The notes under the pieces are model-generated. The model made no database searches. It saw nothing but the letters and a program-made list of their open reading frames with translations, and was not told where the DNA came from. From a virus (Duplodnaviria; Caudoviricetes), in the IMG/VR virus record IMGVR_UViG_3300046170_000302: 64,000 nt of DNA. One strand, 5' to 3'. Position numbers and translations under genes: made by a program. Each line of letters begins with the position of its first letter. Position 1 is the first letter of the stretch. Positions 8,413 to 43,291 of this stretch are shown here, piece after piece.

Positions 8413-8944
8413 GGCACAGAAACACCTTTCTACTCTTATCCCAGAACACTGTGTTGTTTTTGTTGCTAAACTAACTGAGCCAGGTGAAGTTTATGGTAAG
8501 AAGTATCCCAGAGGTCATCGTTGGAGAATTGATTCCAACACCCGTGCATTGAATTGGGCTCGAGCTGGGTCTGATGCTATTCCAAAAGATGTCTTTGTGA
8601 TTGAATATTCTTTTGAAGATCCTGATCGAATTCGTAAATCGTATAATACTTTTGACTCTCCTGATAGTGTAGAAAGAAACCAAGAAAAATTATATGGTAT
8701 CATTTCTGGGATGTACTGTTATACTCCACAGTCCTCAAAACTAATTAAGGGACAAATTATCTCTGGTCTCAATAAAGCATGTAATTTTTATTACCCAGAA
8801 ACTTGGAATCAGAATAATGTACCAGCAGCAGAACTTCCTGGACAGGTTGGTGCTTTCCTTGAAGAGCTTAAGACGTTGGATAGTCTAATGAAAAATAGTA
8901 CGGGGTTCAACACCCCCGTTTTTTATGCTATGTGTTATAATTAG
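8378..8944 (+). pseudogene. Apparently doubly truncated fragment of a phage hypothetical protein
   Basis: Folded-protein-like core (RIDSNTRALNW...YNTFDSPDSVE) but the start overlaps regA by 35 nt and the frame runs through a terminator hairpin into the next promoter. Confidence 0.45.
8900..8924 (+). terminator. Intrinsic terminator
   Basis: ACGGGG-TTCAACAC-CCCCGT followed by a T run. Confidence 0.75.
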
Positions 8945-9001
8945 TATGTGGTTGTCGAAAGAGACCACACATTTCAAACTCGCTTACTTAAGGAGTAACA
9001 C

Positions 9002-9445
9002 ATGACTACACTAGCACGCTACAACTCTGCAAACATCAACCAACTGATGGAACGTTTGCAACGAAACACGATCGGTATGGATGATTATTTTGATCGTGTA
9101 TTCAGCTACGAAGCACAAAGCTATCCCCCATATAACCTCGTTCAGGTTTCTGAGGATGAGTCCCGTCTAGAACTGGCTCTAGCAGGTTTCAGTCAGGATG
9201 AGGTAAAGGTCTACACTGAGAAGGGTTATCTGGTTATTGAGGGACAGAAGGAGAGCTCAGACGGACGGGAGTATATCCACCGCGGTCTGGCATCACGTTC
9301 CTTCACTCGTTCCTGGTCTATCTCAGAAGACACTGAAGTCTCTGATGTGAACTTCGAGAATGGTCTTCTGGTAGTAACACTGGCACGAGTGGTTCCTGAG
9401 AACCGTCGCCGTCGTTATCTTATGGGAGGTGGCGATACTAAATAA
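9002..9445 (+). CDS. hsp20: Small heat shock protein
   Basis: YPPYNLV; LELALAGF; YIHRGLASRSFTRSW; FENGLLVV; SD AAGGAG upstream. Confidence 0.95.
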   Translation: MTTLARYNSANINQLMERLQRNTIGMDDYFDRVFSYEAQSYPPYNLVQVSEDESRLELALAGFSQDEVKVYTEKGYLVIEGQKESSDGREYIHRGLASRSFTRSWSISEDTEVSDVNFENGLLVVTLARVVPENRRRRYLMGGGDTK

Positions 9446-9461
9446 TCTATATCGTCGCCGC

Positions 9462-9505
9462 GGGAGGCACCTGGTCAGTAATCAGGTTGCCCTCCCCCTT
9501 TTTTT
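9462..9505 (+). terminator. Long terminator hairpin whose 3' arm carries a -35 (TTGCCT-17-TATAAT, 9487-9515)
   Basis: GGGAGGCA-CCTG...CAGG-T-TGCCTCCC followed by a T run. Confidence 0.7.
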
Positions 9506-9536
9506 GCACTATAATAATAGAGAGATATTATCTAAA

Positions 9537-9901
9537 ATGACTGTAAAAGTAGTATTACTCAAATCAGGTGAAGATATCATCGCTGATGTTGAGGAAATGA
9601 TTGTAGGTGAACCAGCAAGAGTGGTTGGATACTTCTTCAACTATCCTTGTTCTGTGAAAACTCCTAGGTAATGAAGCCTGTGAAAGAACAGAAGGAATCT
9701 CCTTTCAGACTTCGTATCACACCGTGGGCACCACTCTCTAAGGATCAGAAGGTTCCTGTGGTGTCAGATTGGGTCGTTAGTATTATGGAACCCATCGATG
9801 ATCTTCTAGATATGTACACAACAAGTATTAAAGACTATGAACAAAGACAATCTAAAACTACTAGTTCTACCGACGAATCAGATTCTACTGACTCAGATTG
9901 A
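9537..9901 (+). CDS. Conserved hypothetical protein (frameshifted near 9660-9680)
   Basis: MTVKVVLLKSGEDIIADVEEM... joins ...TPWAPLSKD...WVVSIMEP. Confidence 0.7.
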
Positions 9902-10100
9902 GGAAGCTGGTGGTGATATCGGTGAACCTGATTGTAGATTGGTTGAACCCTTTGTGGTGAATGATGATGGGACTTTGGCTCCGTGGTTAGTTTCTCTTAC
10001 CAATCAGAACTCATTCATGATTCATTCTGATAAGATCTTGACTATCGTGGAACCCAATGGTACACTAGTAGATAAGTACAGCGACCTGGTGAAGGAATGA
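9837..10100 (+). CDS. Conserved hypothetical protein upstream of gp43
   Basis: IGEPDCRLVEPF...MIHSDKILTIVEP. Confidence 0.75.
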   Translation: MNKDNLKLLVLPTNQILLTQIEEAGGDIGEPDCRLVEPFVVNDDGTLAPWLVSLTNQNSFMIHSDKILTIVEPNGTLVDKYSDLVKE

Positions 10101-11560
10101 ACTTTTACGCCAATGTGATTATGGTTGGAAATGATTTCCTCGTTCGTGGTTATGAAAATGGCAAAAGAGTTCAATACAGGGAGAAGTTTCAACCCACCTT
10201 GTTTGTCAAATCAAACAGGGAGAGTGAGTGGAAGACATTGGAAGGTGAGAACGTAGAACCCATTCAACCTGGGTATGTCCGTGATTGTCGTGAGTTCTAC
10301 AAGAAGTATGATGGTGTAGATGGTTTCAAGATCTATGGGAAATGATCGATACATCTATCAATATATGTCTGAGAAGTTTCCACAAGATGAAATCAAGTGG
10401 GACATGTCTAAGATTAAACTTGTTACTATTGATATTGAGGTGAAGTCAGAAGATGGATTCCCCTCACCAGACTCTTGTTCGGAGGAGATGCTAACCATCT
10501 CTATTCAGGATTACAACACTAAGCAGATTCTTACTTGGGGACGTAAACCTTATACTCCATCACAAAAGAATGTCACATACTTCCACCACGAAGAAGAAGT
10601 GGATATGTTGAGAGCATTCATTAACTGGTGGAATGAAGATCCCCCAGAGGTTATTACTGGATGGAACTGTAGGTTGTATGATATTCCATATCTGTGTGGT
10701 CGTGTGGATAGGATAATGGGAACCAAAGAGATGAAGAGATTGTCTCCTTGGAATATCATTCAGCATGATGAGGTATACATCAATGGGAGACCACACAATG
10801 TATACAACATCGCAGGTGTAACTACACTTGACTTTATGGATCTCTACAAGAAGTTCACCTATGTGAACCGAGAATCATATCGATTAGACTTTATTGCAGA
10901 GACAGAACTGGGACAGAAGAAGTTGGACCACTCAGAGTTCAACACCTTTAAGGATTTCTATAATGGTGACTGGAAGAAGTTTGTAGACTATAACATCGTT
11001 GACGTGGAGCTGGTTGATAGGATGGAGGATAAACTTCGTCTGATTGAACTGGTGATTACTATGGCATTTGATGCTAAAGTGAAACTTCGTTGATCCTATG
11101 TTCCAGGTTAGATTGTGGGATACAATCATCTATAACTATCTAAAGAAGAGGAATATTGTAGTTCCTCAAATGGATAGAACAGACAAAGATTCAAAGTTTG
11201 CAGGTGCGTATGTTAAGGAACCGGTTCCGGGAGTCTATGATTGGGTTGTCAGTTTTGACCTTAACTCTCTCTACCCTCATCTTATCATGCAGTACAACAT
11301 CAGCCCCGAAACTCTCTTGGATGAGAAACATCCAACAGCCACAGTTAATCGAATTCTTGATGAGACGGTGAACTTTGAGATGTATAAGGACAATGCAGTT
11401 TGTGCCAATGGTGCAATGTATCGTAAGGATGTCAAAGGTTTCCTACCTGAGTTGATGGAGAAGATGTATGCTGAACGTAAGGCATTCAAAGGGTAAGATG
11501 TTGAAGAGTAAACAGAAACTAGTTGACATTGAAGCCGAGATGAAGAAGAGGGGATTGTGA
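10097..11560 (+). CDS. gp43: Family B DNA polymerase, N-terminal cistron gp43A (exonuclease + palm motif A + first fingers helix); frameshifts near 10340, 11085, 11491
   Basis: ExoI DIEV; ExoII GWNCRLYDIPY; ExoIII YNIVDVELV; motif A SFDLNSLYPHLI; corrected end FKGKMLKSKQKLVDIEAEMKKRGL*. Confidence 0.88.
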
Positions 11561-11823
11561 TAGAATTGCCAGAGATTATCAGAAAGAATTCATTTGCTTG
11601 TTTTGGTAGTTTGAATGCTACTGAGAGAGCAGTTATCTTAATGGGTGATGATGAGTATCGTAAATCACTAGACCTTGAGAATGATGATGCTCTCTGTTGG
11701 AAACTTCCAAGTAAGGAATCATCAACATTTGTTGGTTGGAATCCTCAATGTATTCCAACAATTGATTACATAGTATGGAAACTAGAACGCCTTGAAAAAA
11801 TTACTACAGGAGAAATTCACTGA
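11557..11823 (+). CDS. Hypothetical protein inside the split polymerase locus
   Basis: GTG start overlaps the gp43A stop (GTGA); stop overlaps the purM ATG. Confidence 0.75.
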   Translation: MIELPEIIRKNSFACFGSLNATERAVILMGDDEYRKSLDLENDDALCWKLPSKESSTFVGWNPQCIPTIDYIVWKLERLEKITTGEIH

Positions 11824-12745
11824 TGGACTATAAAACTTCCGGTGTCGATATTGAAAAGGGTAAAGCATTTGTAGAACATCTCAAAATTATGGCACCTAAA
11901 ATTGGTGGGTTTAATGGAATGTATCCCCTTCCAAAAGGATATGAAAGACCGGTTCTGGTATCTGGTGCTGATGGTGTCGGAACTAAGATGAATATCTGTA
12001 GAATTGCCTTTGACTACACTACAATTGGAATTGATTTAGTTGCAATGTGTGTCAACGATGTAATCTGTAGTGGTGCTAAACCATTATATTTTTTAGACTA
12101 TATCTCTACTAAAAATATAAACTCCAGTGTCAATGAGATTGTATCTGGAATTGTCAAAGGATGTGAGATTGCTGGAATGGACCTTCTGGGTGGAGAGACT
12201 GCAGAACATTTCAGAGCAATCTGACTATGATCTTGCTGGTTTCTGTACTGGTATTGTAGGAGAAATATGAGATTGTTAATGGTAGTAGCATCCGAGCTGG
12301 TGATGTAGTCATCGGTATTGAGAGTAGTGGTCTTCATAGTAATGGATACACTCTTATCAATGATATGTTGTGGAGGAATAAAATCCTCTATAAGGATATG
12401 CCAGAGTTGTTAACACCAACCACAATCTACTCTCCTGTAATCCAAAAACTATTGGATGAAGTTCCTATTCTAGGTATGGCACATATCACAGGTGGTGGTA
12501 TCCCAGAGAACCTTCCTAGGTGTCTCCCCAAAGACAAAGGACTGAGTGTGAATGTTGATTACAATTCTTGGGAAAGACCAGAACTCTTTGATAAGATACA
12601 GAAAGCTGGTGACATCACTGAAGAGGAGATGAGGAACGTATTCAATCTTGGTATCGGGTTCTGTTTGATTGTCCCACCTGATGTGGTAGAATACACTCAA
12701 GCACTTATAGGTATGAAGTCCTGGGTCATCGGAGTAGTGGAATGA
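11823..12745 (+). CDS. purM: AIR synthetase (frameshifts near 12222 and 12262)
   Basis: MDYKTSGVDIE; DGVGTK; DLVAMCVND; GAKPLYFLDY; GGETAE; SSGLHSNGY; AHITGGG; FNLGIG. Confidence 0.93.
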
Positions 12746-13025
12746 AGTTCAAAGCATTAGTATTCATTCGTCTGAGATCACAGGTTGATGACTCACCAGG
12801 TAATGCTGTGAGAGACGCCTGTAAACGATTATCTGAGTTGGATATCAAGAAACTTAGACTTGGGTAAGGTGGTTGATGTTTGGTTGGAAGCAGAGAGCTA
12901 GAGAGTATGCTGAGAAGGAACTTGAAATGCTGTCGGATAGATTTCCTTGCTAATAAAGGTTATGGAAGACTGGGATTATGAACTTGACTGAGATTGAAAA
13001 CTTTCCTAAAGGTATTGAGGAATAA
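12742..13025 (+). CDS. purS: FGAM synthetase small subunit PurS (several indels)
   Basis: Hand-read MKFKALVFIRLRSQVDDSPGNAVRDACKRL...LRLGKVVDVWLEA...DRFLAN..MED; not in the ORF track because of indels. Confidence 0.75.
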
Positions 13026-14187
13026 TGGGATATCTAATCGGTGGTGCTGGTGAAGGTGTAGAAGAGGAGATCGTACAATCTGGTAAAGACTATTCTAAAC
13101 TGTCTGATCGAGAACTCCTAAGTCTCAGGGATCAGACAGTAAAAGATGTTGCTAAGTTCAACAACTTTCAGATGGTGAGAAAGATTTGTTTGAACTCAGC
13201 TTATGGTGCGGTTGGTAACCAATACTTCAGATACTTCAAACTTGCAAATGCAGAAGCTATCACTCTGTCAGGTCAAACATCTATCAGGTGGATTGAGGAT
13301 AGGTTGAATAAGTATTTGAATGAACTCCTAAAGACTGATAATGATTATGTTATTGCCGTTGATACTGATTCTGTATACCTTAACCTTGGTCCTCTTGTTG
13401 ATAAGTTCCTAGCAAAACAGAAGGATGATAAGGAGAAGGTGGTGAACCTTTTGGATAAGGTTTGTCAAGACAAGTTAGAACCTTTTATCGACGACTGTTA
13501 TGTGAAACTGGCTGACTATGTGAATGCATACGATCAGAAGATGCAGATGAAGACGTGAGAATATTGCTGATCGTGGTATCTGGACTGCCTAAGAAACGAT
13601 ACATCCTCAATGTGTGGGATAGTGAGGGTGTTCGTTATGAAGAACCCAAACTCAAGATCATGGGTATTGAGGCTGTCAAATCATCTACACCTGCTCCCTG
13701 TAGGAAGATGATTAAGGATGGTCTTCGAGTGATGATGGAAGGAACTGAAGATGAGATGATTAAGTTCATCGATCAAGCTAGACTTGAGTTCAACAAACTA
13801 TCAGTAGCTGAGTTGTCATTTCCCCGTTCTATTTCTGATGTAAATAAACATAAGAGCCACACAACCATCTATGGAAAGGGTTGTCCTATCCATGTGAGAG
13901 GTTCACTACTCCATAACCACTACATCAAAGAGAGAGGTTTGGATAACAAGTATTCTCTTATCAATAATGGTGATAAGATTAAGTTTGTTTATCTTAAGAA
14001 AGCCAATCCTATTCGTGAGAATGTGATTTCATTCTTGAATGATTTTCCGTATGAACTCGGACTTGATAAGTATATTGATTATGAGTTACAATTCAACAAA
14101 GCCTTCCTTGAACCTGTAAAGGTCATTCTTGATTCCATTGGATGGAATGTTGAGAAAGTTGCAAACCTAGAGTTATTTTTTAGTTAA
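13025..14187 (+). CDS. gp43: Family B DNA polymerase, C-terminal cistron gp43B (second fingers helix, motifs B and C, thumb); frameshifts near 13553 and 13588
   Basis: Motif B KICLNSAYG; motif C DTDSVY; KKRYILNVWDSEG...KIMGIEAVKSSTP; clamp-binding tail LELFFS. Confidence 0.9.
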
Positions 14188-15197
14188 TGGATTTCCTTAA
14201 AGAGATTGTAAAAGAGATTGGAGATGAGTACACCCAACTGGCAGCCGACATCGACGAAACCGAAACTTACGTGGACACGGGTTCGTACATCTTTAACGGA
14301 CTTTGTTCAGGTAGTATATTTGGTGGCGTATCTGGGAATAAGATTACTGCCATTGCTGGGGAGTCTTCTACTGGAAAGACTTTCTTTAGCCTGGCAGTCG
14401 TCAAGAATTTCCTTGATTCTAACCCTGGTGGTTATTGTCTATATTTTGACACTGAAGCCGCTGTTAACAAGTCTCTTCTCACAAGTAGGGGGATTGACCT
14501 AGACCGTTTCGTTGTAGTCAATGTAGTTACTGTCGAACAGTTTAGACAGAAGGCACTACAAGCTGTTGATATCTACCTCAAAACACCAGAGGAAGATAGG
14601 AAACCTTGTATGTTTGTATTAGACTCTCTGGGTATGTTATCTACAGAGAAAGAGATTCGTGATGCTCTTGATGACAAACAGGTTCGGGACATGACCAAAT
14701 CACAGTTGGTCAAAGGAGCCTTTAGAATGTTAACCCTGAAGTTGGGACAGGCTAAAATCCCAATGATTGTTACTAACCACACCTACGATGTTATCGGATC
14801 TTATGTCCCGACTAAGGAAATGGGAGGCGGCAGTGGCCTCAAGTATGCCGCCTCTACGATCATTTATCTCACAAAGAAAAAGGAAAAGGATGGAACGGCT
14901 GTTATCGGAAACCTTATCAAAGCTAAAACAGCAAAGTCAAGACTTAGTAAAGAAAATAAAGACGTAACAGTTCGTCTCTACTATGATGAGAGAGGTTTGG
15001 ACAAATACTATGGTCTTCTAGAGTTAGGAGAAGCTGGTGGTATGTGGAAGAATGTGGCTGGTCGTTATGAGATGGATGGTAAAAAAATATATGCAAAAGA
15101 GATTCTTAAGAATCCAGATAAGTATTTTACACAGGAAGTTTTAGAACAGTTAGATGAAATCGCGAAAGAACAATTCTCCTATGGTTCAAGTATTTGA
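14187..15197 (+). CDS. uvsX: RecA-like recombinase UvsX
   Basis: AGESSTGKT; FDTEAA; VLDSLG; GGGSGLKYAAS. Confidence 0.95.
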   Translation: MDFLKEIVKEIGDEYTQLAADIDETETYVDTGSYIFNGLCSGSIFGGVSGNKITAIAGESSTGKTFFSLAVVKNFLDSNPGGYCLYFDTEAAVNKSLLTSRGIDLDRFVVVNVVTVEQFRQKALQAVDIYLKTPEEDRKPCMFVLDSLGMLSTEKEIRDALDDKQVRDMTKSQLVKGAFRMLTLKLGQAKIPMIVTNHTYDVIGSYVPTKEMGGGSGLKYAASTIIYLTKKKEKDGTAVIGNLIKAKTAKSRLSKENKDVTVRLYYDERGLDKYYGLLELGEAGGMWKNVAGRYEMDGKKIYAKEILKNPDKYFTQEVLEQLDEIAKEQFSYGSSI

Positions 15198-15699
15198 CCA
15201 TGTTCTCCCTGAGGACTTGTGTCACAATCTCATAGATCTATTTGAAGATTCTGAGAAGAACCACGAATACTTTAATGATGATTACAAACCCTGTTTTACA
15301 CAACTGAACCTCAATCAACACAACCCAGAACTGGTAAAGGTTCTGGTTGGATTTGTTCAGAAAGCATACGGAATGTATTCAGTTGAGGTTAGAAGAAAAC
15401 ATCTACCAAGATTGAAATCTCTTGAGCAGTTTAGACTCAAGAGATATCTTCCTGGTGGAGAAGAACGATTTGATGAACATGTGGATGTGGGTGACCACGA
15501 ATCTGCAAGGAGATGTCTTGCCTTCTTATTTTATCTAAACGGTAGTGACGGAGAAACATACTTTCCTGAACATGACGTGACAATCCACCCAAAGTGTGGT
15601 AAAGTATTAGTGTTCCCTCCAACATGGGAATACCCACACGCTGGGTTGCCACCAACAAATACAAAGTATATTTTGAGTACATACATTCATTATGAATAA
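15181..15699 (+). CDS. 2OG-Fe(II) oxygenase (prolyl-4-hydroxylase-like)
   Basis: FDEHVD; LAFLFYLN; GKVLVFPPTWEYPHAG; KYILSTY. Confidence 0.85.
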   Translation: MVQVFDHVLPEDLCHNLIDLFEDSEKNHEYFNDDYKPCFTQLNLNQHNPELVKVLVGFVQKAYGMYSVEVRRKHLPRLKSLEQFRLKRYLPGGEERFDEHVDVGDHESARRCLAFLFYLNGSDGETYFPEHDVTIHPKCGKVLVFPPTWEYPHAGLPPTNTKYILSTYIHYE

Positions 15700-17065
15700 G
15701 GTTGAGTTTCTAATCCTAAGAAGTCTTCTTCACAATGAAGAATATTTGCGTAAGGCTTTACCATTCCTCAAAGATGAATACTTTGAGGACGAGGATCAGA
15801 AAGTTGTATACCAAGAGATTCTCAGTTTTACAACTGAGTATAATGAACTTCCTACAAAAGAGGTTCTTTCTATTGAGGTTGAGAAACGAAAGGATATCAA
15901 TGAGGATCAGTTCAAGAAAATTGCTCATCTGATTTCACATCTAGATGATGAACCAGCAGAGTTTGATTGGTTGTTAAACACTACTGAAAAGTGGTGTCGT
16001 GAACGTGCTATCTACTTGGCACTGGTTGAGTCTATTGGTATCGCAGATGGTCAGAGTAAAGATAAGACTCCAGATGCAATTCCTTCTATCTTATCTGATG
16101 CTCTAGCTGTTAGTTTTGATAATCATGTTGGACACGATTACCTAGAAGATTATCTAGAACGATATGAAGCCTATAACAGAAAGGAGAATAGGATACCATT
16201 TGATCTAGAATACTTTAACAAGATTACAAAGGGTGGTCTTCCTAACAAGACACTGAATATTGCTCTGGCTGGCACAGGTGTTGGTAAGTCTTTGTTTATG
16301 TGTCATATGGCTGCCTCTGTTCTTCTTCAGAACAAGAATGTTTTATACATTACTATGGAGATGGCTGAAGAGAAGATCGCAGAACGTATTGACGCTAACC
16401 TTTTGAATGTGAATATCCAAGAGGTGGCAGAACTTCCTAAACAGATGTTTGAAACCAAGGTAAATAACCTAGCAAAGAAGACTCAGGGAACCCTGATCAT
16501 CAAAGAATATCCCACAGCATCGGCACACAGTGGACACTTTACATCCCTTCTTAATGAGCTTGCACTTAAGAAGTCATTTAGACCTGATATTATTTTCATT
16601 GATTACCTTAATATTTGTGCTTCCAGCAGGTATCGCGGAGGCAGCAATGTCAATTCATATACGGTTATTAAGTCTATTGCTGAAGAGCTTAGAGGACTCG
16701 CTGTCGAAGCGAACGTACCTATCGTATCTGCCACCCAGACCACTCGTTCTGGTTATGGTAGCAGTGACGTTGAGCTTACTGATACTAGTGAGTCCTTTGG
16801 TCTCCCTGCTACTGCTGATCTTATGTTTGCCCTTATTTCAACTGAAGAACTCGAATCCTTGGGACAGATACTGGTGAAGCAGTTGAAGAACAGATACAAT
16901 GACGCTAATGTGTATAAGAGATTTGTGATTGGTATTGACAGAGCCAAGATGAGGTTGTATGATTGTGAGCAGTCAGCTCAGGACGATCTCCTTGAAAGTA
17001 AAACCGAAGAGGAGTATAATTATGAGGACAAACCTAAGAAATCATTTGAGGGATTTAAGTTTTGA
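15692..17065 (+). CDS. gp41: Replicative helicase gp41
   Basis: AGTGVGKS; ITMEM; IFIDYLN; TQTTRSG; SESFGLPATAD. Confidence 0.96.
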   Translation: MNKVEFLILRSLLHNEEYLRKALPFLKDEYFEDEDQKVVYQEILSFTTEYNELPTKEVLSIEVEKRKDINEDQFKKIAHLISHLDDEPAEFDWLLNTTEKWCRERAIYLALVESIGIADGQSKDKTPDAIPSILSDALAVSFDNHVGHDYLEDYLERYEAYNRKENRIPFDLEYFNKITKGGLPNKTLNIALAGTGVGKSLFMCHMAASVLLQNKNVLYITMEMAEEKIAERIDANLLNVNIQEVAELPKQMFETKVNNLAKKTQGTLIIKEYPTASAHSGHFTSLLNELALKKSFRPDIIFIDYLNICASSRYRGGSNVNSYTVIKSIAEELRGLAVEANVPIVSATQTTRSGYGSSDVELTDTSESFGLPATADLMFALISTEELESLGQILVKQLKNRYNDANVYKRFVIGIDRAKMRLYDCEQSAQDDLLESKTEEEYNYEDKPKKSFEGFKF

Positions 17066-17418
17066 ACGGTTACTATTCAGTGTTTAATCCCAGAGGTGAA
17101 AAGATTGCCGATTGTGGTAGTCAAAGAGATGCCGTTAATCTTATTGGTATGAGGAATGCACGATGGGACGGACATTACTATATGTTCAATCCCCTCCCTG
17201 GTGATATAATTGATGTTAGTTCTGACAAACAACTTCCTACCCGAGACATCGTAGTTAATATGGATGGTGGAGTAGGTGGTTCTTGGAAAGAAGTTTCCGA
17301 GGAAGAATATGTTCACATCAATGACGATCCTCATGATGGATGGTGGTTGAGACCCGAACATCAAGACTGGAATCTCCCTGAACTCCCTGAAAATCAACAA
17401 CAACCTTTAGACTTATGA
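17062..17418 (+). CDS. Hypothetical protein
   Basis: ORF coupled to both neighbours. Confidence 0.7.
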   Translation: MNGYYSVFNPRGEKIADCGSQRDAVNLIGMRNARWDGHYYMFNPLPGDIIDVSSDKQLPTRDIVVNMDGGVGGSWKEVSEEEYVHINDDPHDGWWLRPEHQDWNLPELPENQQQPLDL

Positions 17419-27709: not shown

Positions 27710-28702
27710 ATGGATTTTATTGATGTCAAATACATCAATTTGATCTCCTCCAGACTTCAAAAGTTCAAAAGAGTAAAGCCAAAGCTTTATAACTTCCGAT
27801 GTCCCATATGTGGTGACTCTCAGAAGAATAAGAACAAAGCTAGAGGTTTTCTTTATCAGGTTAAGAACAATACTAATTTCAAGTGCCATAACTGTGGTAT
27901 CAGTGTTTCGTTTGCAAACTTCTTAAAGGATTTGGATCCTCAAACTTATAAACAATATACTTTTGAGAAGTTCAAAGAAGGTAATACTGGTAAGAACTTT
28001 GTAACAGAATCACCTGAAGATATGTTTAGTAAGATGAGAAATACTAAACCAACATTTAAGAAGAAGATTGTCATCGATCTCCCTTCTGCTTTCAGTATTC
28101 CATCGTCTAAACACTATTTGGAATCTAGAGCCATCTTGAGTGGGAACTTTTATTACGCAGAAAACTTCCAAGAGTTTGTTAATAGTATCAAACCAGGTTC
28201 ATTTGAACATCCTAAATTTGGTGAATCTAGAATTGTAATTCCTCTTGTCAGGGATGAGAAACTTATCGGGTTACAGGGCAGAGCCCTATCTACAAACCCT
28301 GTTAAATACTTAACCGTTATGTTGGATGAGGATGCCCCAAAGATCTATGGAACCGATGAGATTGACAAATCCCTTCCAGTCTATATTACAGAAGGACCAT
28401 TCGACTCTACGTTCATTCGCAACTCGGTTGCTATGTGTGGAGCTGATGTTGATGTCGTCAGTTGCGGGATTAGTAATCCTGTCTGGATATATGATAACGA
28501 ACCACGCAACTCCCAAATCACCAGAAGAATTGAACAAACAATCGATCAAGGAGATAGAGTCGTTATCTGGCCCTCCAATATTCGGGAAAAGGATATAAAT
28601 GATATGGTCTTAAGTGGACATAAAGTTCAAGAGATTGTAGACAAAAACACCTACAAAGGATTAGAAGCAAAACTAAAATTTACCAGTTGGAAAAAAGTAT
28701 GA
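27710..28702 (+). CDS. gp61: DNA primase gp61
   Basis: Zn finger CPICGDS...CHNCG; TOPRIM EGPFDS; YDNEPRN; KDINDM. Confidence 0.96.
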   Translation: MDFIDVKYINLISSRLQKFKRVKPKLYNFRCPICGDSQKNKNKARGFLYQVKNNTNFKCHNCGISVSFANFLKDLDPQTYKQYTFEKFKEGNTGKNFVTESPEDMFSKMRNTKPTFKKKIVIDLPSAFSIPSSKHYLESRAILSGNFYYAENFQEFVNSIKPGSFEHPKFGESRIVIPLVRDEKLIGLQGRALSTNPVKYLTVMLDEDAPKIYGTDEIDKSLPVYITEGPFDSTFIRNSVAMCGADVDVVSCGISNPVWIYDNEPRNSQITRRIEQTIDQGDRVVIWPSNIREKDINDMVLSGHKVQEIVDKNTYKGLEAKLKFTSWKKV

Positions 28703-31000
28703 GTAACGGTACAAAGGTTCAGAAGAGAGATGGTCGTGTTGAATCACTTGACCTGGATAAGATGCATCTTATGGTTGAAGAGGCGTGTGATGGCCTATCA
28801 AATGTGTCTGCTAGTCAGGTAGAGATGACATCTGGTATTCAGTTCTATGATGGCATTACTACTGCTGAGATCCAAGAGATTCTTATTAAGAGTGCCAGTG
28901 ACCTGATTGACTTGGATCACCCCAACTATCAGTTTGTAGCTGCAAGACTCCTTCTGTTCTCTCTTAGGAAGCAACTGTATGGTGGTAGGAGGGAGATGCC
29001 TTCCTTGATTGATCACATCACCAAACTGGCATACGATGATCACTATGATAGAGATATCTTTACAAAGTATTCACAAGAAGAGATTGAGAAGGTAGAAACT
29101 TTTATTGATCACGATCGTGATTTTCTATTCACATATGCTGGTTTGAGGCAGGTTGTGGATAAATACCTAGTACAAGATAGGAGTATTGGAAAGGTACACG
29201 AAACTCCTCAGTTCATGTATATGATGATTGCATTGACAATCTTCCGTGAGTATCCAAAAGAAACAAGACTTTCCTACGTTAGAAGATACTACGATGCCAT
29301 CTCAAAACACAGACTCAACATCCCAACGCCAATCATGGCGGGTGTCAGAACTCCCCTACGCCAGTTTGCGTCTTGTGTTCTGGTTGATGTTGATGACACC
29401 CTGGATAGCATTTTTAGTTCTGATATGGCCATTGGCCGTTATGTCGCACAAAGGGCTGGCATCGGTATCAACGCTGGCAGGATCCGTGGGATCAACAGTA
29501 AAATCAGGGGCGGAGAAGTACAGCACACTGGCGTTGTTCCTTTCCTTAAGAAGTTTGAATCAACTGTACGATGCTGTACACAAAATGGGATTCGTGGTGG
29601 CTCAGCAACAGTCCACTTCCCCATCTGGCACCAAGAAATCCAAGACATCATCGTCTTAAAGAACAACAAAGGCACAGAAGACAACAGGGTACGGAAACTT
29701 GATTACTCAATCCAAATTTCAAAGATTTTCTACGAACGTTTCATTGCGAATGGAGAGATTAGCTTGTTCTCACCGCACGACGTACCGGGTCTGTATGATG
29801 CCTTTGGTACTGACGGGTTCGATGATTTATATGTTAGTTTTGAACGAGATGAGTCTGTTCCAAGAAAGAGTATTAAAGCACAAGAACTAATCCTCGATAT
29901 TCTCAAAGAAAGAGCAGAGACCGGTCGTCTGTATCTGATGAATATTGACCATTGTAACTCTCACTCTTCTTTCAAAGATAAGATTGAGATGAGTAATCTG
30001 TGTCAAGAGATTACTCTCCCCGACATATCCTTTGTCACACATCGATGACCAGGTTGGTGAGATTGCACTGTGTATTCTCTCAGCAGTCAACGTTGGTAAG
30101 ATTAAGTCCGATGAGGAACTAGAAGACCTCTGTGACCTAGCTGTGAGGGGTCTAGACGAGTTGATTGACTATCAAGACTATCCAATCATCGCAGCTGAAC
30201 TTGCAACTAAGGCAAGAAGGTCTCTGGGTATTGGTTACATTGGATTGGCACACTACCTAGCAAAGTTGGGTTACTCCTATGATTCACAAGAGGCATGGGA
30301 TGCTGTTCATGGACTCTCTGAGTCCTTCCAGTATTACCTTCTGAAGTCTTCTAATCAGTTGGCTAAGGAGAAAGGTCACTGTGAATACTTTGGTCGCACC
30401 AAATACTCCAGTGGAACACTACCTATCGATACATATAAGAAAGATGTAGATGAACTAGTATCAACGGAGTTGCAACATGATTGGGATATGCTTAGGAATG
30501 ATATCCTCGAATACGGTCTCAGGAACTCAACACTGTCCGCACAAATGCCATCGGAAAGCAGTTCCGTTGTGTCAAACGCAACTAATGGAATCGAACCTCC
30601 TCGTGGATACTTGTCCATTAAGAAGTCCAAGAAAGGGCCTCTTAAGCAAATTGTTCCCCAGTATGCCTCATTGAAGAATAACTATACTCTTCTGTGGGAT
30701 ATGAAAGATAATGGTGGATACATTAGAATAGTAGCTGTGATGCAAAAGTTCTTCGACCAGGCAATTTCTGGTAACTGGAGTTATAATCCAGAGAACTATC
30801 CTGATAATGAGGTTCCTGTTTCCCAGATGGCAAAGGATTTTCTCACAACTTATAAATATGGTTGGAAGACATCCTACTATCAGAACACTCACGACTTAAA
30901 GTCTGATGAAGTAGATGAAGAGCCGCAGTCGAAGTTAGATGAATTGTTATTAGAACTATCACAAGCCGAGGAGGGAGAGTGTGAATCCTGTGCAGTTTAA
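28699..31000 (+). CDS. nrdA: Ribonucleotide reductase class Ia alpha subunit (frameshift near 30020-30040)
   Basis: ATP cone; TPIMAG; SCVL; SNLCQEI; MPSESSS; YQN; C-terminal CESCAV. Confidence 0.95.
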
Positions 31001-32178
31001 AGTTTCACCAGTAGGTGGCAAAGATATCATGAATGAAGTGAAAGGTATGACGGTGTTTAACACCGAGGTACATGATGCAAAGAAACAACCAATGTTCTTT
31101 GGTAAACCTCTGGGAGTCCAGAGGTATGATTCTTATAAGTATCCGGTGTTTGAAAAACTTACTACACAACAACTTGGATACTTCTGGAGACCAGAAGAAG
31201 TTTCACTACAGAAAGATAGAGGAGACTATCAGTCTCTCCGTCCAGAACAGAAACATATCTATACTTCTAACCTGAAGTATCAGATTATGTTGGATTCTAT
31301 TCAGGGTCGTGGTCCTGGTATGGCATTCATTCCTTACTGTTCCTTACCTGAACTAGAAGCATGTATGGAAGTCTGGGGATTTATGGAGATGATCCATAGT
31401 CGTTCCTACACATACATCATTAAGAACATTTACTCTAATCCAGCTGATGTGTTGGATAAGATTGTCACAGATCAAAAGATCCTAGACCGTGCCAAGAGTG
31501 TTACAGAGTCATATGATGACTTCATCAACACCGCACAAGTCTGGGGAACTACTGGTATGTGGTCTGCAGATTTTAGAGGATCTCCATCAACTGAGTATGA
31601 AATCAAGGAAGTCAAGCGTAAGCTCTACAGAGGCTGTTGCGAATGTCAACATCCTGGAAGGCATTCGTTTCTATGTCAGTTTTGCTTGTTCTTTTGCTTT
31701 CGGCGAGCTCAAACTCATGGAAGGGTCGGCGAAGATCATTAGTCTTATCGCCCGTGACGAGAATCAGCATCTTGCAATCACGCAGAATATCCTGAATAAG
31801 TGGAAGAGTGGTGATGATCCTATGATGAAACAGATCGCCAAAGAAGAAGAAGAGTGGGTCTATGCAATGTTTGATAGAGCTGTGAATGAGGAGAAGGCTT
31901 GGGCTGACTACCTGTTCAAGGACGGTTCTATGATTGGTCTAAATGATACCCTATTGCAACAGTATGTTGAGTGGATTGCCAATCGTCGTATGAAGGGTAT
32001 AGGATTGAAGCCAGTCTATGATGTACCTGCTAAGAACAATCCCTCTCCCTGGACCCAACACTGGATCTCCTCGAAGGGACTGCAAGTGGCACCACAAGAA
32101 ACGGAAGTTGAATCTTATGTCGTCGGTGGAATCAAACAGGATGTACAAAAAGACACTTTCTCAGACTTTAAACTCTGA
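30981..32178 (+). CDS. nrdB: Ribonucleotide reductase class Ia beta subunit (frameshift near 31630)
   Basis: FWRPEEV; MEMIHSRSY; LEGIRFYVSFAC; RDENQH; APQETE. Confidence 0.95.
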
Positions 32179-32446
32179 GATAGAAGGGAGATATCCCTAT
32201 AACAAATCTCTTTTGTCCTATAAGAGGTGGTCTGATAGTCTCAGGCCACCTTTTCGTGGTATGGCACATAAGGTATTGAAGAGATCTTTGGAGTGGTGGT
32301 ATGAGAAACCCATCTATCTACATCCTTTACCTGTGAATGAACAGGTTAAGAATGTAAGAAAGGTATATGGTAAGACTCAGTACCCTTCAACAGAAGATAG
32401 AGCTACAGAATACATCTGGACTGGCGATGGGGACTGGCACCGATAA
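32141..32446 (+). CDS. Hypothetical protein
   Basis: ORF 32018..32446; start uncertain. Confidence 0.5.
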   Translation: MYKKTLSQTLNSEIEGRYPYNKSLLSYKRWSDSLRPPFRGMAHKVLKRSLEWWYEKPIYLHPLPVNEQVKNVRKVYGKTQYPSTEDRATEYIWTGDGDWHR

Positions 32447-32469
32447 ATACCCCCAGTTGAATACATTAT

Positions 32470-32898
32470 GTGTGTGACTACGAGAACCCCTGGACCTTTC
32501 TGGAGAGACCTTTTACTAGTGATGATGTTCACGACTTTTTTGGGTTTGTGTATCTCATTACCAATCTCACAAACCAACGACTCTACATTGGGAGAAAAGT
32601 TTTTTGGTTCCACAGAAAACCTCCTGGAAAGAAAAGAAGAGTAAAGAAGGAGTCAGATTGGAAAGTGTACTATGGTTCCTCTGACGAACTGAAGGCGGAT
32701 GTTAAACTTCTTGGAACTCATATGTTTCGTAGGGAGATCCTTTCACTGCACAAAACCAAAGGTAAGACAAACTTTGCTGAGACTGAGGCATTATTTAAGA
32801 ACAATGTTCTTACAGAATCTATGCCTGATGGTACTCCCAAATACTACAACTCCAACATTATGAATCGTTATTATCGCAAGGATTACTTTGAGATTTGA
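32470..32898 (+). CDS. GIY-YIG family endonuclease
   Basis: GFVYLITNLTNQRLYIGRK; YYGSSDEL. Confidence 0.8.
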   Translation: MCDYENPWTFLERPFTSDDVHDFFGFVYLITNLTNQRLYIGRKVFWFHRKPPGKKRRVKKESDWKVYYGSSDELKADVKLLGTHMFRREILSLHKTKGKTNFAETEALFKNNVLTESMPDGTPKYYNSNIMNRYYRKDYFEI

Positions 32899-32923
32899 TT
32901 GAGATACATAATACTACTATAAT
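32895..32923 (+). promoter_or_regulatory. Sigma-70-type promoter
   Basis: TTGATT-17-TATAAT. Confidence 0.65.
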
Positions 32924-32945
32924 ATTTAAGATTTTTATTTGACTC

Positions 32946-33540
32946 ATGAAGAAACTATTAACACCTTTACTAGCAACACTGTTGGTAGGATGTCAACAAG
33001 CCTCAACAGGAGCCAACTTATCAGTTGATGTCACTGAAGACAATAACACAGCTGTACCTATTGAAGTTGTTCCACCAATCAAATGGACCTGTCCAACATG
33101 TACAGACAATGAAAAATATGTCCTCAAACAACTACAAGAAAAAACAAGAATCACAGATCGAAATGCCTTGGCAACGATCATGGGTAATATTAAACAAGAA
33201 AGTAAGTTCTATTCCAACATTTGCGAGGGAGGGGACTAGAGTTCCTTACTCTGATTGCCATCGGGGTGGGTACGGACTCATTCAGTGGACCTCTACACAG
33301 CGTCATCTGGGGTTAGGATATTTCGCTAAAAAGTATGGATGTGATCCTAGCACTCTTGAGTGTCAGACACGTTATATGATTAACGAACCTATCTTCCAAC
33401 GGTATCTTCCTGAGTTTGAAGGTAGTGACCAGAGTATTGCTCAGTATATGGTTCCTTCCTACTACTGGTTAGGGTGGGGAATTGAGGGATCAAGAGAGAC
33501 ATATAGTCATCAATACAGATCAAAGCTACTGAAGCCTTGA
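32946..33540 (+). CDS. Lipoprotein with phage-tail-lysozyme-like (lysozyme2) domain; frameshift near 33232
   Basis: Lipobox LLVG-C; ALATIMGNIKQES; GGYGLIQWT. Confidence 0.7.
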
Positions 33541-38243: not shown

Positions 38244-39152
38244 TTGGATATGATCGCCTAGGAACGAATGGTCGTTTCGGTAACCAACTCTTTCAGTATG
38301 CAGCACTGAGAGGTATTGCATCAAAACATGGGTATGAGTGGTGTATTCCTCCTGATAGTCATGACACCTATGCTAACTATGGGATGCATCATCCCTTTGA
38401 GTTGGTTGGACTGAAACCAGATAACATTGGATTTGTGAATGAGAATGTCTCACCACAATCTATGTTTTCTTTCCAGGCTCTTAAGGAAACTAATCCTAAT
38501 ACTAAGAATGTAACTGAGGGTGCTTATTGTTTTGATGAAGAACTCTTCAATAACTTTGAGGACGGAACAAACCTAGATGGATATCTTCAGACTGAAAAGT
38601 ATTTCAAACACATCGAACACGAGATTCGTGCAGACTTCGCATTCAAGCCAGAGATTCTAGAACCCTTGTAATGACTTTATCAGTAATTTTGAGAACATTA
38701 ATTTTCTCCATGTTCGTCGCGGAGATAATGTGGGTCGTGAAGATTATTATCGGATGATGACGTTTGACTATTACACAAGAGCTTTGGAACTATTTCCTGA
38801 AGACTCTCATGTATTGGTATGTTCTGATGATCCTCAGTGGTGTTCTGAACAAGAGTTCTTTGATGATGAAAGGTTCTTGATTAATACTGATGTTCCTGAG
38901 TATGACCATATGTGCCTAGAAGGTGATGGTGGTCGTCGTCGTTCTAAGGTTCCTTATACTGACCTGTGTCTAATGTCTCTATGTAATGGAGCTATTCTCT
39001 CCTCCTCCTCTCTGGGTTGGTGGGGAGCCTGGTTGCAGAAGGGTAGGACTAACCCTGTAGTGGCTCCTGAACACTGGTATGGACCTGTCCTAGAGGCTGT
39101 CAATGATTGTAAAGACCTCTACCCTGACGAGTGGACCGTTATCCCTAACTAA
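38240..39152 (+). CDS. GT11 alpha-1,2-fucosyltransferase-like (frameshift near 38665)
   Basis: GRFGNQLFQYA; LHVRRGD; SSLGWWGAWL. Confidence 0.85.
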
Positions 39153-39153
39153 T

Positions 39154-39975
39154 ATGAGACACGATCTTAAAGACACCACTTTCATCATTCCTATTTGTAT
39201 CGAATCAGAAGATCGAATGAGGAATGTAATCACTACATTGTGTTATCTCCTTGAGAACTTTGATACAAAGGTTATTCTCAAGGAGGTTGACACTGAATCA
39301 GTATTTCAACAACAGTGTCTCCCTCAGATCTCGGAGTATGTGGAGGATGGGATTGAGAACTTAACTCATATCTTTGAGAAGAGTGATCCTGCTGACAATA
39401 TGTTCTATCGTATGAGATATCTCAATGAGATGTTGAGTATGTGTGAAACAGAGGTAGTTGCTAACTATGATTGCGATGTTTTACTGCCTGTTAATACATA
39501 CCTAGAAGCACAAAAGTTTATTACTGAAGGAGGTTATGATGTCATCTACCCCTATGGTCAAGGTCCATGGCAAAAGAAAGTATATGCTACCGATGAAATG
39601 GTATCTAAGTTTCTATCTAACGACTGTAAGTTCTCACATCTAGAGAAAAAGGTAGAGATTGATAATGCAGAGAGTGGCCACGCACAGTTCATTCGTAGGT
39701 CAACATACATTGAAGCTGGTATGGAGAATGAAAACTTCATCTCATACTCACCAGAAGATAAGGAGAGACTTCATAGGTTCAATATCCTTGGATACAATGT
39801 AGGTAGGATTGAGAACTGGGTGTATCACCTAGAACATATGAGAACTCATAACTCATGGTTAAATAATCCACACATGCAAAACAACTTTGCCTTGTGGGAG
39901 TTTCTCAAACCTTTGAGTGAAGAAGAACTTAGGCAATACTACAAAGAACAGAAGTATCTCAAGAAGTATACATGA
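39154..39975 (+). CDS. GT-A fold glycosyltransferase (GT2/GT7-like)
   Basis: YDCDVLL; GMENENFISYSPEDKER; VYHLEH. Confidence 0.8.
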   Translation: MRHDLKDTTFIIPICIESEDRMRNVITTLCYLLENFDTKVILKEVDTESVFQQQCLPQISEYVEDGIENLTHIFEKSDPADNMFYRMRYLNEMLSMCETEVVANYDCDVLLPVNTYLEAQKFITEGGYDVIYPYGQGPWQKKVYATDEMVSKFLSNDCKFSHLEKKVEIDNAESGHAQFIRRSTYIEAGMENENFISYSPEDKERLHRFNILGYNVGRIENWVYHLEHMRTHNSWLNNPHMQNNFALWEFLKPLSEEELRQYYKEQKYLKKYT

Positions 39976-40778
39976 TTGGTTTTAACTACCTAGGAAAACT
40001 AGGACAACTTGGTAATCAGATGTTCCAGTATGCATCACTCATTGGTGTTGCAGATAAGATTGGAACATCTTTTTGTATCCCACATCATCATGAAGTGATG
40101 GTTGACAACCTGGGAAATAGACTTAGGATAGAGTTGTTTGATGCATTTGATATCAAACCAGATAGGGTTGGATTTATTCCTACTGATAAGAACTATCAAG
40201 AAGGAGAGTTCACTTTCGAAGAGGGAGCATTCCAGATTGACACTGAACATGACACATGTCTGATTGGTTTCTTTCAAACCGACAGATACTTTAGACACAT
40301 TCAAGATCGTATCAGATCAGAGTTTACATTCAAGAATGAAATTAAAGAGGAGTGTCAGGATATCGTGGATTGTTTTGACAATCCTGTTGCTTTGCATATT
40401 CGTAGAGGTGATTATCTCATCAATAGTGGTAATCATCACAACCTTTCTGATGATTATTATGAACATGCATTGAAAGAGTTTGACGAAGATCGACAAGTGG
40501 TTATCTTTACTGATGACCCTGAGTGGGCATTGAACAACCCTCTCTTTGGAAGTGATAGATTCATCGTATCAGAAGGTAATGGTCCTTATCATGACCTGTA
40601 TATGATGACACAGTGTAGTGATTTTATTATCTCTAACTCTACATTCTCATGGTGGGGAGCTTGGTTGGCTGACAAAGGTAAGGTGATAGCACCTGAGGCT
40701 TGGTTTGGTCCTAACAACTCAGATAAATCTACAAGGGATTTGTATCCCGAACATTGGACAATTATTCCTCAATCATAA
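39972..40778 (+). CDS. GT11 alpha-1,2-fucosyltransferase-like, second paralog
   Basis: GQLGNQMFQYA; LHIRRGDY; NSTFSWWGAWL. Confidence 0.88.
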   Translation: MIGFNYLGKLGQLGNQMFQYASLIGVADKIGTSFCIPHHHEVMVDNLGNRLRIELFDAFDIKPDRVGFIPTDKNYQEGEFTFEEGAFQIDTEHDTCLIGFFQTDRYFRHIQDRIRSEFTFKNEIKEECQDIVDCFDNPVALHIRRGDYLINSGNHHNLSDDYYEHALKEFDEDRQVVIFTDDPEWALNNPLFGSDRFIVSEGNGPYHDLYMMTQCSDFIISNSTFSWWGAWLADKGKVIAPEAWFGPNNSDKSTRDLYPEHWTIIPQS

Positions 40779-42998: not shown

Positions 42999-43291
42999 TG
43001 AACGTAAAACTGTTTCGTATTGTCACTGGCGAAGAAGTAATTGCAGAGGTAGTTGAAGAAAACGCATCTACTGTAACTGTAAGAAATGGACTGGTTGTGA
43101 TTCCACAGGCACAGAACATTGGGTTTGCACCTTGGGCTACTGTGGTTAGTAGAGAGAAACCAGAACTCGAAGTTTCTCGCACACACATTGTATATGTTGG
43201 TGAGGTAGAACACTCTATTAGAGAGAAGTATGATTCTATCTACGGTAGTAAACTGGTAACACCTGAACCCAAGAGTTTGATTCTCCAATGA
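42995..43291 (+). CDS. Conserved T4-like hypothetical protein (Sm-like)
   Basis: VKLFRIVTGEEVIAEV. Confidence 0.75.
   Translation: MMNVKLFRIVTGEEVIAEVVEENASTVTVRNGLVVIPQAQNIGFAPWATVVSREKPELEVSRTHIVYVGEVEHSIREKYDSIYGSKLVTPEPKSLILQ

Follow-up and report, generated by a model that had tools for sequence, protein, structure and literature searches.

Homing endonucleases have been associated with the fracture of phage genes, as for seg43 in Aeromonas phage 25 and mobE in nrdA of Aeh1. As in the locus described below, the polymerase of Aeromonas phages 44RR2.8t, 31, 25 and 65 is encoded by split genes, 43A and 43B, and in 44RR the two halves consist of 498 and 391 amino acids. In Aeromonas phage 25, the gap between the halves holds a GIY-YIG homing endonuclease, and the split gp43A/B proteins of this phage co-purify and are active (PMC2988022). 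Similarly, the gp43 of the T4-like Acinetobacter phage 133 is bicistronic (Petrov et al. 2006/2010, cited in PMC3061061): the PolB is broken at the tip of the fingers into genes for approximately 500 and 390 amino acids, separated by eight ordinary (non-endonuclease) ORFs over about 2.9 kb, including the tk.4 phosphatase. The PolB fold tolerates such a break, as an engineered Pfu PolB, split near the finger tip into two cistrons with an overlapping AUGA, is fully active (PMC3061061). A different kind of fracture is known from marine phages with split inteins, in which cyanophage-like replication genes (gp41, NrdA) are broken and a free-standing endonuclease gene lies between the parts (Dassa et al. 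2009, PMC2677866). Here, we describe a split gp43 in the window, a stretch of 64,000 nucleotides of viral DNA. In the reading that we regard as very probable, gp43 is a single-copy polymerase made as two polypeptides that reassemble as a PolB, the fingertip junction is a permissive site and the purine genes found in it are passengers.

The split gp43 locus and errors in the record

The gp43 of the T4-like cyanomyovirus in the window is encoded by two cistrons, coding for an N-terminal half of 486 amino acids and a C-terminal half of 386 amino acids. The features of the locus are as follows:

10097..11560, plus strand: gp43A, N-terminal half of the polymerase, with ATG at 10097 and TGA at 11558-11560
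11557..11823, plus strand: ORF88, conserved cyanophage protein (phrog_1132), with a GTG start inside the gp43A stop (GTGA)
11823..12745, plus strand: purM (AIR synthetase), Pfam AIRS and AIRS_C, 306 aa after error correction
12742..13025, plus strand: purS (small FGAM-synthase subunit), Pfam PurS, 92 aa after error correction
13017..13020, plus strand: Shine-Dalgarno-like GAGG, 4 nt 5' of the gp43B ATG, from direct reading of the sequence
13025..14187, plus strand: gp43B, C-terminal half of the polymerase, 386 aa, with an invariant MGYLIGG start
14187..15197, plus strand: uvsX (RecA-like), the usual downstream neighbour of gp43

These coordinates, including the gp43B ATG at 13025, and the four junctions (GTGA at 11557, TGATG at 11821, ATGA at 12742 and TAATG at 13023) are as claimed in an earlier note on this DNA, and at the last of them the TAA stop of purS overlaps the gp43B ATG. 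gp43A comprises the exonuclease domain and motif A (DLNSLYP) as well as the first of the fingers helices, which bears the R/K contacts to the triphosphate; in error-free relatives gp43A is 486 amino acids long with the C-terminal end KKRGL. The second of the fingers helices, which bears motif B (KICLNSAYG), is part of gp43B, as are motif C (DTDS), KKRY and the thumb, and the C-terminal LELFFS of gp43B is presumably a clamp-binding tail. With approximately 75% amino-acid identity to the gp43 of cyanophage RN05-S, matches to the RB69 and T4 gp43 structures (E values 1e-20 to 1e-27) and a conserved replication gene order, the window gp43 is a T4-type family-B replicative polymerase. The gp43 flanks are made up of hsp20, two small ORFs, uvsX and gp41, and as uvsX directly follows gp43B, the polymerase locus is otherwise in the standard cyanomyovirus order. 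The AIRS/AIRS_C and PurS domains, in frames that are intact after correction and in independent assemblies, identify two of the genes in the gap as the cyanophage purine auxiliary metabolic genes purM and purS.

In the raw window, gp43, purM and purS are all frame-broken due to extra single bases. Using the IMG/VR contig L006 as a comparator (96% identical), we counted 17 extra single bases in the stretch from 8896 to 13590, and 13591-17292 contained none. Twelve of the 17 are located inside the split-gp43 locus (10097-14187), at the following positions:

gp43A: about 10340, 11081 and 11488
purM: about 12216 and 12259
purS: about 12859, 12897, 12942, 12958 and 12984
gp43B: about 13554 and 13590

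The single extra G reported in the earlier note is real (near 11488-11491) and missing in independent contigs, but the damage was understated. Removal of nine bases restores the frame from the gp43A tail through ORF88, purM (306 aa) and purS (92 aa) into gp43B, and as independent metagenome contigs lack the extra bases, all five genes are intact in nature.

Twelve frame-breaking extra bases in 4.1 kb might suggest an artefact, with a chimeric assembly, or a dead gene, with a polymerase undergoing pseudogenisation. However, these bases are missing not only from L006, but also from contigs of four independent public runs belonging to four studies. In addition, the errors begin upstream of gp43 (8896-9682) and end abruptly at 13590, a pattern that fits a low-quality patch in the record. 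The junction at 11557 is bridged by contigs X1 (11293-11950) and X6 (11407-11881) and by X15 (11293-11702) from an RNA-library run, and the junction at 13025 by contigs X2 (12984-13365) and X6 (12987-13365); contigs of independent runs thus bridge both junctions, which argues against the chimeric assembly that the earlier note had wanted checked. Moreover, the intact arrangement recurs across many assemblies: the order 486 aa, 87 aa, PurM, PurS, 386 aa and RecA-like was found in eight independent assemblies (Tara Oceans, other ENA records and Logan), one of which, L137, has an additional 79-aa ORF after the N-half, and the IMG/VR contigs L004-L006 show the same gene order. Intact halves of 486 and 386 amino acids could be read from L006 and the eight independent assemblies, the split-locus stretch is present in 16 studies, and nearly all of the best 120 protein-collection matches to gp43B are exactly 386 amino acids long. 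We consider an artefact or a dead gene to be exceedingly improbable.

Conservation of the break and retention of both halves

In an alignment with RB69 gp43, residue 472 of gp43A corresponds to residue 494, which places the end of the N-half at about RB69 residue 508, and residue 21 of gp43B corresponds to residue 531. The break is therefore located between the two fingers helices, as had been proposed, in the loop at the fingers tip. The further proposal, that the two new ends carry additional helical sequence, is only partly correct, as the first 27 or so residues of gp43B are predicted, with low confidence, to be coil; the model of isolated gp43B is poor (pLDDT 54.7) and was used for N-terminal secondary structure only.

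Many contigs of marine cyanomyoviruses, as well as the cultured Synechococcus phages ACG-2014f, are broken at the same residue (KKRGL and stop, followed by MGYLIGG). Among 63 loci with both halves, gp43 is split in 30, and 28 of these possess the GYLIGG head. In 15 of the 28 GYLIGG-type loci the cistrons overlap by 1 nt (stop/start), and the remaining 13 carry 184-1657 nt of cargo. The signature of the split allele consists of the tail KQKLVDIEAEMK(K/R)RG(L), followed by the stop codon, and the head MGYLIGGAGEG. GYLIGG is invariant across 19 distinct sequences, with two to five different codons used at each of the six positions. This conservation of the break across diverse cyanomyoviruses, including cultured ones, agrees with the earlier view of an evolved two-cistron polymerase as opposed to a fresh disruption; as to whether split and cargo are conserved or variable among relatives, the break is conserved and the cargo between the halves is variable. 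The split is not special to the phage in the window, a widespread marine cyanophage, and it is probably an old allele, inherited or horizontally shared, in many marine cyanomyoviruses.

Both gp43 halves have dN/dS values of 0.04-0.09, the same as uvsX, and Exo I, motifs A, B and C and KKRY are all present across gp43A and gp43B. The earlier note had named an intact gp43 elsewhere in the genome as evidence against its reading; we found no further gp43 (PolB) match within the window, and the complete 223-kb ACG-2014f genome contains just one gp43 C-half. The low dN/dS, the full set of catalytic motifs and the single copy indicate that both halves are retained as functional genes. The predicted gp43A-gp43B complex reached a score of 0.84, compared with 0.00 for the best control, although so high a score may reflect model memory of the monolithic PolB fold. 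Of 78 solved complexes, 51 reached this mark, compared with 2 of 108 mismatched pairs. The prediction supports the gp43A-gp43B heterodimer that had been suggested, in which the halves would assemble physically and would be active.

Alternatively, the halves could end up as one polypeptide, through group I intron splicing, a split intein or bypassing by the ribosome. Gene 43 introns occur in some T4-like phages (PMC2993671), and among the replication genes of cyanophages, some, such as gp41, are fractured by split inteins (PMC2677866). However, an Rfam search of 9000-15500 gave no intron, even at E <= 1, the gap of 1.46 kb is coding throughout, and in cargo-less relatives, in which the halves meet at the TAATG junction only, there are zero intervening nucleotides. 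Furthermore, PolB domains are the only Pfam domains in the halves, with no intein domain among them, and together the halves are only about 41 residues longer than an intact 831-aa gp43. A search for a ribozyme core in the gap gave no Rfam match at E <= 1 except a sub-threshold sRNA hit, and an intron search at the second split site of relatives was negative. Contigs of an RNA-library run likewise lack a joint skipping the insert, and no joint skipping 11560-13025 was seen in assembled contigs, in which rare processing could escape notice; RNA libraries can also contain DNA. A joining of the halves is in our view very unlikely.

We propose that the sole replicative polymerase, gp43, is made as gp43A (486 aa) and gp43B (386 aa), broken at the fingers tip, and that the two halves would reassemble non-covalently to give the normal PolB fold. 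In the simplest form, the cistrons abut at TAATG, and the K-R-R-G codons (AAGAGGGG) would double as the gp43B ribosome-binding site.

Cargo in the fingertip junction

In relatives with the same break, the gap contains nothing (TAATG), small ORFs, purM alone, purS alone or homing-endonuclease-like genes. L058 has only purM in the gap, L018 has purM without purS and L017 has purS without purM. Matches to phrog_374 'HNH endonuclease' were found in the gaps of L070 and L076 (E values 1e-56 and 9e-60), and the gap genes of L111 and L128 match phrog_655 and phrog_314, respectively. The gap in the window holds no homing endonuclease gene, only ORF88, purM and purS. No purC was found among ten larger ORFs that were scanned. 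In most cyanophage contigs carrying the module, ORF88-purM(-purS) is located outside gp43, and ORF88 is usually found directly 5' of purM in other cyanophage contigs. As the cargo varies among close relatives and other phages have the module outside gp43, we regard the cargo as a passenger. AG-345-F15 was considered as a second insert case (76% coverage) and was rejected, as gp43 is intact there, with 831 amino acids, and purM is located approximately 600 bp 5' of it. For ORF88, no Pfam hit and no usable hit in an Atlas search were obtained, the only profile match was to phrog_1132, and its AlphaFold model is of moderate quality (pLDDT 72.5), with no fold match in the PDB or AFDB clusters.

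The cassette could instead be a selected regulatory design, in which translational coupling of gp43A-ORF88-purM-purS-gp43B links the polymerase to purine enzymes. The overlaps at all four cassette junctions, the tight packing kept in L004-L006 and the eight independent assemblies, and the purifying selection on the cargo genes (dN/dS 0.09-0.25) would be in line with such a design. Yet cargo is missing, partial or unrelated (ORFs, endonucleases) in sister lineages that share the break, and the ORF88-purM-purS module is normally found outside gp43. Overlaps of 1 or 4 nt are also present at 26 of the 99 adjacent ORF pairs in the window, and gp43B has its own GAGG ribosome-binding site. Nor is the cassette set apart by a promoter or terminator signal, as scans for sigma-70-type promoters and terminators and a search for the T4 late-promoter motif gave nothing above chance in or around it. 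The idea put forward in the earlier note, that polymerase expression is tied to purine supply, was not supported, given the variable cargo and the frequency of start/stop overlaps across the window, and a dedicated design of this kind seems improbable to us. Since all four junctions overlap and are tightly packed in the closest relatives, the cargo may nevertheless be under some selection to be translated together with the polymerase.

In the passenger reading, the fingertip junction would tolerate insertions and would have gained passenger genes repeatedly. The ORF88-purM-purS module, which other cyanophages usually carry upstream of gp43 or at another site, lies in the junction of the window phage. 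It is packed, with stop and start codons that overlap, and has the orientation of the replication genes on both sides. purM and purS would accordingly be ordinary auxiliary metabolic genes in a permissive site, and no dedicated regulators of the polymerase.

In a tree of the gp43 core, from which the fingertip region had been trimmed in every row, split forms of the GYLIGG type are mixed with unsplit ones. Monophyly of the split forms was rejected, as constraining them to a single clade costs 738 log-likelihood units (p-AU 2e-47), for a group that was defined after inspection of the tree. In addition, the same gap holds three different homing-endonuclease-like families in different lineages. 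One might speculate, tentatively and with more doubt than confidence, that the fingertip break is a mobile 'split allele' and no passive scar, which spread with its cargo by endonuclease-driven gene conversion among co-infecting cyanomyoviruses. If so, the middle of an essential polymerase gene would be a shared integration hotspot for genes of the purM and purS type, and the MGYLIGG head, which does not vary, and the KRRG tail would have evolved to serve assembly and translational coupling.

A globally distributed group of ocean cyanophages would replicate with a two-subunit PolB, and ACG-2014f could serve as a natural, cultivable system in which the assembly of a split polymerase and the effect of the split on fidelity or nucleotide selection can be studied. 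Within an essential gene, the junction behaves as a site for gene cargo and connects the traffic of homing endonucleases with that of auxiliary metabolic genes. On a practical level, the C-half is mis-started or fragmented by gene callers and in GenBank records, and gp43 PCR markers or trees that span the fingertip would be affected in split lineages.

Comparison with known split systems

A cultured counterpart is Synechococcus phage ACG-2014f (Atlauavirus tusconc8), which carries the same split allele, with an N-half ending in EAEMKRRGVL and a C-half that begins with (I)GYLIGGAGEG. Its cargo consists of two small ORFs (phrog_3538 and phrog_3571), whereas ORF88-purM-purS is present in the window, and its first C-half codon is ATT or ATC, with the GenBank C-half start at an internal GTG. 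The earlier note knew of no description of such an arrangement, which is correct only in part: our literature search found no paper discussing the cyanophage gp43 split, but cargo in a fingertip-split gp43 was already known from phage 133, and ACG-2014f records annotate two 'gp43 DNA polymerase' CDSs.

The engineered Pfu polymerase differs in that it is a laboratory construct without cargo, which was split within helix O and not in a loop. The halves of the genes described by Dassa et al. bear split-intein parts and are ligated by trans-splicing, whereas those in the window have no intein domain. Phage 133 belongs to another phage lineage with another host; its cargo is unrelated and includes no purine genes, and its break-end sequences appear to differ. 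In 44RR, the break lies within about four residues of the cyanophage break, as judged by the conserved RK...RKI landmarks, and the N-halves of both end shortly past RG(V/L). However, the gap in 44RR is a 49-nt untranslated spacer, as opposed to a TAATG overlap or cargo in the cyanophages, its end sequences are not recognisably homologous to the cyanophage ends, and the MGYLIGG head is absent in 44RR, the one Aeromonas/Acinetobacter-type comparator looked at. The Aeromonas-type and cyanophage splits are likely of independent origin. The split gp43A/B that the earlier note had named from Aeromonas and Acinetobacter T4-like phages is borne out by 44RR, phage 25 and phage 133, and the cyanophage split is the counterpart of the fingertip-split gp43 known from these phages.

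Integrity and reality of the interrupted polymerase gene

The gp43 homologue spans 10097 to 14187 on the plus strand and is interrupted at 11557-13024 by sequence encoding an 88-aa ORF (ORF88), purM and purS, the latter two identified by the Pfam domains AIRS/AIRS_C and PurS. An earlier note had proposed a polymerase split into two parts (gp43A and gp43B) with an ORF-purM-purS set between them; the ORF listing and the sequence confirm this, and the four junctions lie where that note had placed them.

11557, + strand: GTGA, gp43A stop and ORF88 start
11821, + strand: TGATG, ORF88/purM
12742, + strand: ATGA, purM/purS
13023, + strand: TAATG, purS/gp43B

The surrounding gene order (hsp20, two small ORFs, gp43, uvsX, 2OG-Fe(II) oxygenase, gp41, mazG) is normal for cyanomyoviruses, and the nearest deposited phage is Synechococcus phage RN05-S (~78% nucleotide identity). 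Within the gp43B coding region, 13119-13147 weakly matches the Ocean-VII sRNA (20.8 bits vs a gathering score of 53.5), probably by chance.

When the window was searched by tblastn with intact relatives, gp43 fell into six frame-pieces, purM into three, and the purS frame is broken several times. The single extra base noticed earlier is real, but the damage is larger: compared with the 96% identical IMG/VR contig L006, the window carries 17 extra single bases at 8896-13590 and none between 13591 and 17292. Removing nine of these bases restores the frame from the gp43A tail through ORF88, purM (306 aa) and purS (92 aa) into gp43B. The extra bases are absent from contigs of four studies (three DNA runs, one RNA-library run), and L006 and other relatives encode intact 486-aa gp43A and 386-aa gp43B proteins. 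The frameshifts are therefore errors of the record, with nothing pseudogenised in nature. The insertions lie mostly outside long homopolymers, gp45 is likewise frame-broken at ~4672, and this part of the source assembly looks to be of low quality. Several overlapping ORFs at 28687-33540, including a ribonucleotide-reductase small-chain fragment (30981-31742), look similarly frame-broken and reflect either additional errors of the record or a further split gene.

The insert is genuine and common. The stretch is present in sixteen studies, independent contigs bridge both gp43/cassette junctions, and none of the contigs examined omits the insert. The IMG/VR contigs L004, L005 and L006 share the gene order, and eight independent assemblies from Tara Oceans, other ENA records and Logan read 486 aa PolB / 87 aa / PurM / PurS / 386 aa PolB / RecA-like, one of them with an extra 79-aa ORF. 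One exact 386-aa C-half protein is present in 58 blocks of the assembly index, and the best 120 protein matches are nearly all exactly 386 aa, several being flagged 'complete gene'. Splicing of the insert finds no support, as an Rfam search revealed no intron, the gap is entirely coding and no contig skips the insert. PolB domains are the only Pfam domains in both products, whose summed length exceeds the intact 831-aa cyanophage gp43 by ~41 residues.

A shared break with variable cargo

With the C-half start as query, IMG/VR yielded 63 loci with both halves, and gp43 is split in 30 of them. A common signature is found in 28 of the 30, in which the N-half ends ...KQKLVDIEAEMK(K/R)RG(L)(K/S) before its stop codon and the C-half begins (M/V/I)GYLIGGAGEG. 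Fifteen signature loci lack cargo and have a one-base stop/start overlap (TAATG), with the C-half ribosome-binding site AAGAGGGG supplied by the K-R-R-G codons, and the other 13 hold 184-1657 nt of cargo.

Cargo in the gp43 gap of the window and related loci (L-numbers)
ORF88, purM, purS: window, L005, L006
ORF88, purM, purS, 66-aa ORF: L004
ORF88, purM, purS, further small ORFs: L010, L052
ORF88, ORF79, purS, ORF62: L017
Membrane ORF, ORF87, purM, lipoprotein-like ORF: L018
purM only: L058
Thioredoxin-like ORF, small ORFs: L060
Homing-endonuclease-like gene (phrog_374, phrog_655, phrog_314; E 1e-27 to 1e-60): L070 (4226-4687), L075/L076 (L076 4500-4955), L111/L114 (L111 3890-4564), L128 (4301-5005)

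The three homing-endonuclease-like families are distinct and sit exactly in the fingertip gap of different lineages; L111/L114 and L128 lack the GYLIGG head and represent a more divergent split type. The cultured Synechococcus phages ACG-2014f share the signature break and hold two small ORFs in their gap; their ~45 records annotate two 'gp43 DNA polymerase' CDSs, and the C-half is single-copy in a complete 223-kb genome. The split allele is widespread among cyanomyoviruses, and its junction appears to act as a hotspot for cargo and endonucleases.

In four lineages (L131, NC_047713.1, 3498-3503; L132; L070; L075/L076), gp43B has ATT or ATC as its conserved first codon, directly after GAGG or GGAGG. 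Just upstream of it, ACG-2014f and L075/L076 show no canonical start in frame, whereas L070 has a GTG in frame five codons before. This essential gene may use AUU/AUC initiation. GenBank annotates the ACG-2014f C-half from internal start codons, which is 50-62 codons too late.

Another gp43 split, found in cyanomyovirus contigs L084 (528-3805), L082, L086, L088, L118, L120, L122 and L124, breaks after motif A (...SISPETL, 17 extra residues, stop), followed by a 194-aa HNH endonuclease ORF and a C-part opening with ~60 extra residues; Rfam found no intron at this site. In L085 (6773-8834), L106, L108 and L109, uvsX is interrupted by ~1 kb near residue 205-216, which could be an intron, intein or endonuclease insertion.

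Purine genes and polymerase expression

The earlier note had further suggested that polymerase expression is tied to purine supply. The cargo proved variable among close relatives, which weakens this idea, and a selected coupling seems improbable. Among 47 ORF88-bearing IMG/VR contigs, ORF88-purM(-purS) mostly lies outside gp43, and in several that include the polymerase it is upstream of an intact gp43. In addition, gp43B has its own GAGG ribosome-binding site, 26 of the window's 99 neighbouring ORF pairs overlap by 1 or 4 nt, and no promoter or terminator distinguishing the cassette was found. Nucleotide-supply genes would also be expected among the replication genes of the gp43 block wherever they sit.

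PurS (12742-13025) is 96-98% identical between the window and L008, L011, L013 and L016, whereas PurM is only 75-79% identical and gp43, where on the contig (L008), ~70%, which suggests recent purS exchange or extreme constraint on purS. In ORF88 (phrog_1132; 11557-11823 and 47 IMG/VR loci), 26 positions never vary, two of them Cys, and purM follows it immediately downstream in about half of these loci; no matching fold or family was found for ORF88. Elsewhere, a sugar-nucleotide and glycosyltransferase cluster at 39100-49900 (GDP-mannose dehydratase-like, GT11, GT25, PfkB kinase, zinc-dependent alcohol dehydrogenase) is taken to be a cyanophage hypervariable island.

Function and evolution of the split polymerase

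N-half residue 472 aligns with RB69 gp43 residue 494, placing the N-half end at ~RB69 508, and C-half residue 21 aligns with RB69 531. By these alignments, the break lies in the loop linking both fingers helices, as had been proposed. Exo I and motif A are found in gp43A, along with an 'ERKAFKG' segment, the counterpart of the gamma-phosphate contacts R482/K486 of RB69 (PMC3061061), and gp43B carries motif B (KICLNSAYG), motif C (DTDS) and KKRY. Between diverged split loci, dN/dS is 0.04-0.09 in both halves, equal to uvsX, and 0.09-0.25 in cargo genes. GYLIGG is invariant although 2-5 different codons occur at each of its six positions, and constraint therefore acts on the peptide. The heterodimer envisaged earlier is well supported as a predicted assembly. 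The complex prediction scored 0.84 for gp43A with gp43B and 0.00 for the best control; among solved complexes this mark was attained by 51 of 78, among mismatched pairs by 2 of 108. The score may reflect memory of the PolB fold. Contacts predicted with confidence take in the N-half tail (residues 463-486) and residues 21-56 of the C-half, and C-half residues 1-20 are not among them; a low-confidence model of the C-half alone has coil at residues 1-27 and a helix at 28-56. These data suggest that the function of the split gp43 is retained.

After the fingertip region had been trimmed from every row, a maximum-likelihood tree of the gp43 core showed split forms interleaved with unsplit ones, and its starred branches force at least six state changes. 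Monophyly of the GYLIGG-type alleles, a group defined after the tree was seen, is rejected by an AU test (log-likelihood difference 738, p 2e-47). The nearest unsplit gp43 has a shorter tip and both flanks common to split forms (KQKLVDIES...DQTVKDIAKF). The interleaving fits either recombinational exchange of a fingertip cassette or repeated re-fusion. Since endonuclease genes occupy the gap, we infer that gene conversion is a plausible driver.

In the literature searched, no description of a split gp43 from cyanomyoviruses was found; split polymerase genes are mentioned in one paper, for cyanopodoviruses (PMC10976474). Fingertip-split bicistronic gp43 is established in the T4-like phages 133, 44RR, 31, 25 and 65, with gaps of 2 bp to ~3 kb; in phage 25 the two halves co-purify and show activity (PMC3061061; PMC2988022; PMC2677866). 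In a direct check, the 44RR2.8t halves measure 498 and 391 aa and are separated by a 49-nt spacer, the break lying within ~4 residues of the cyanophage one, and the 2.9-kb gap of phage 133 holds eight ORFs, one a phosphatase. The gp43 described here thus joins this established kind as a cyanophage member, with auxiliary metabolic genes as cargo.
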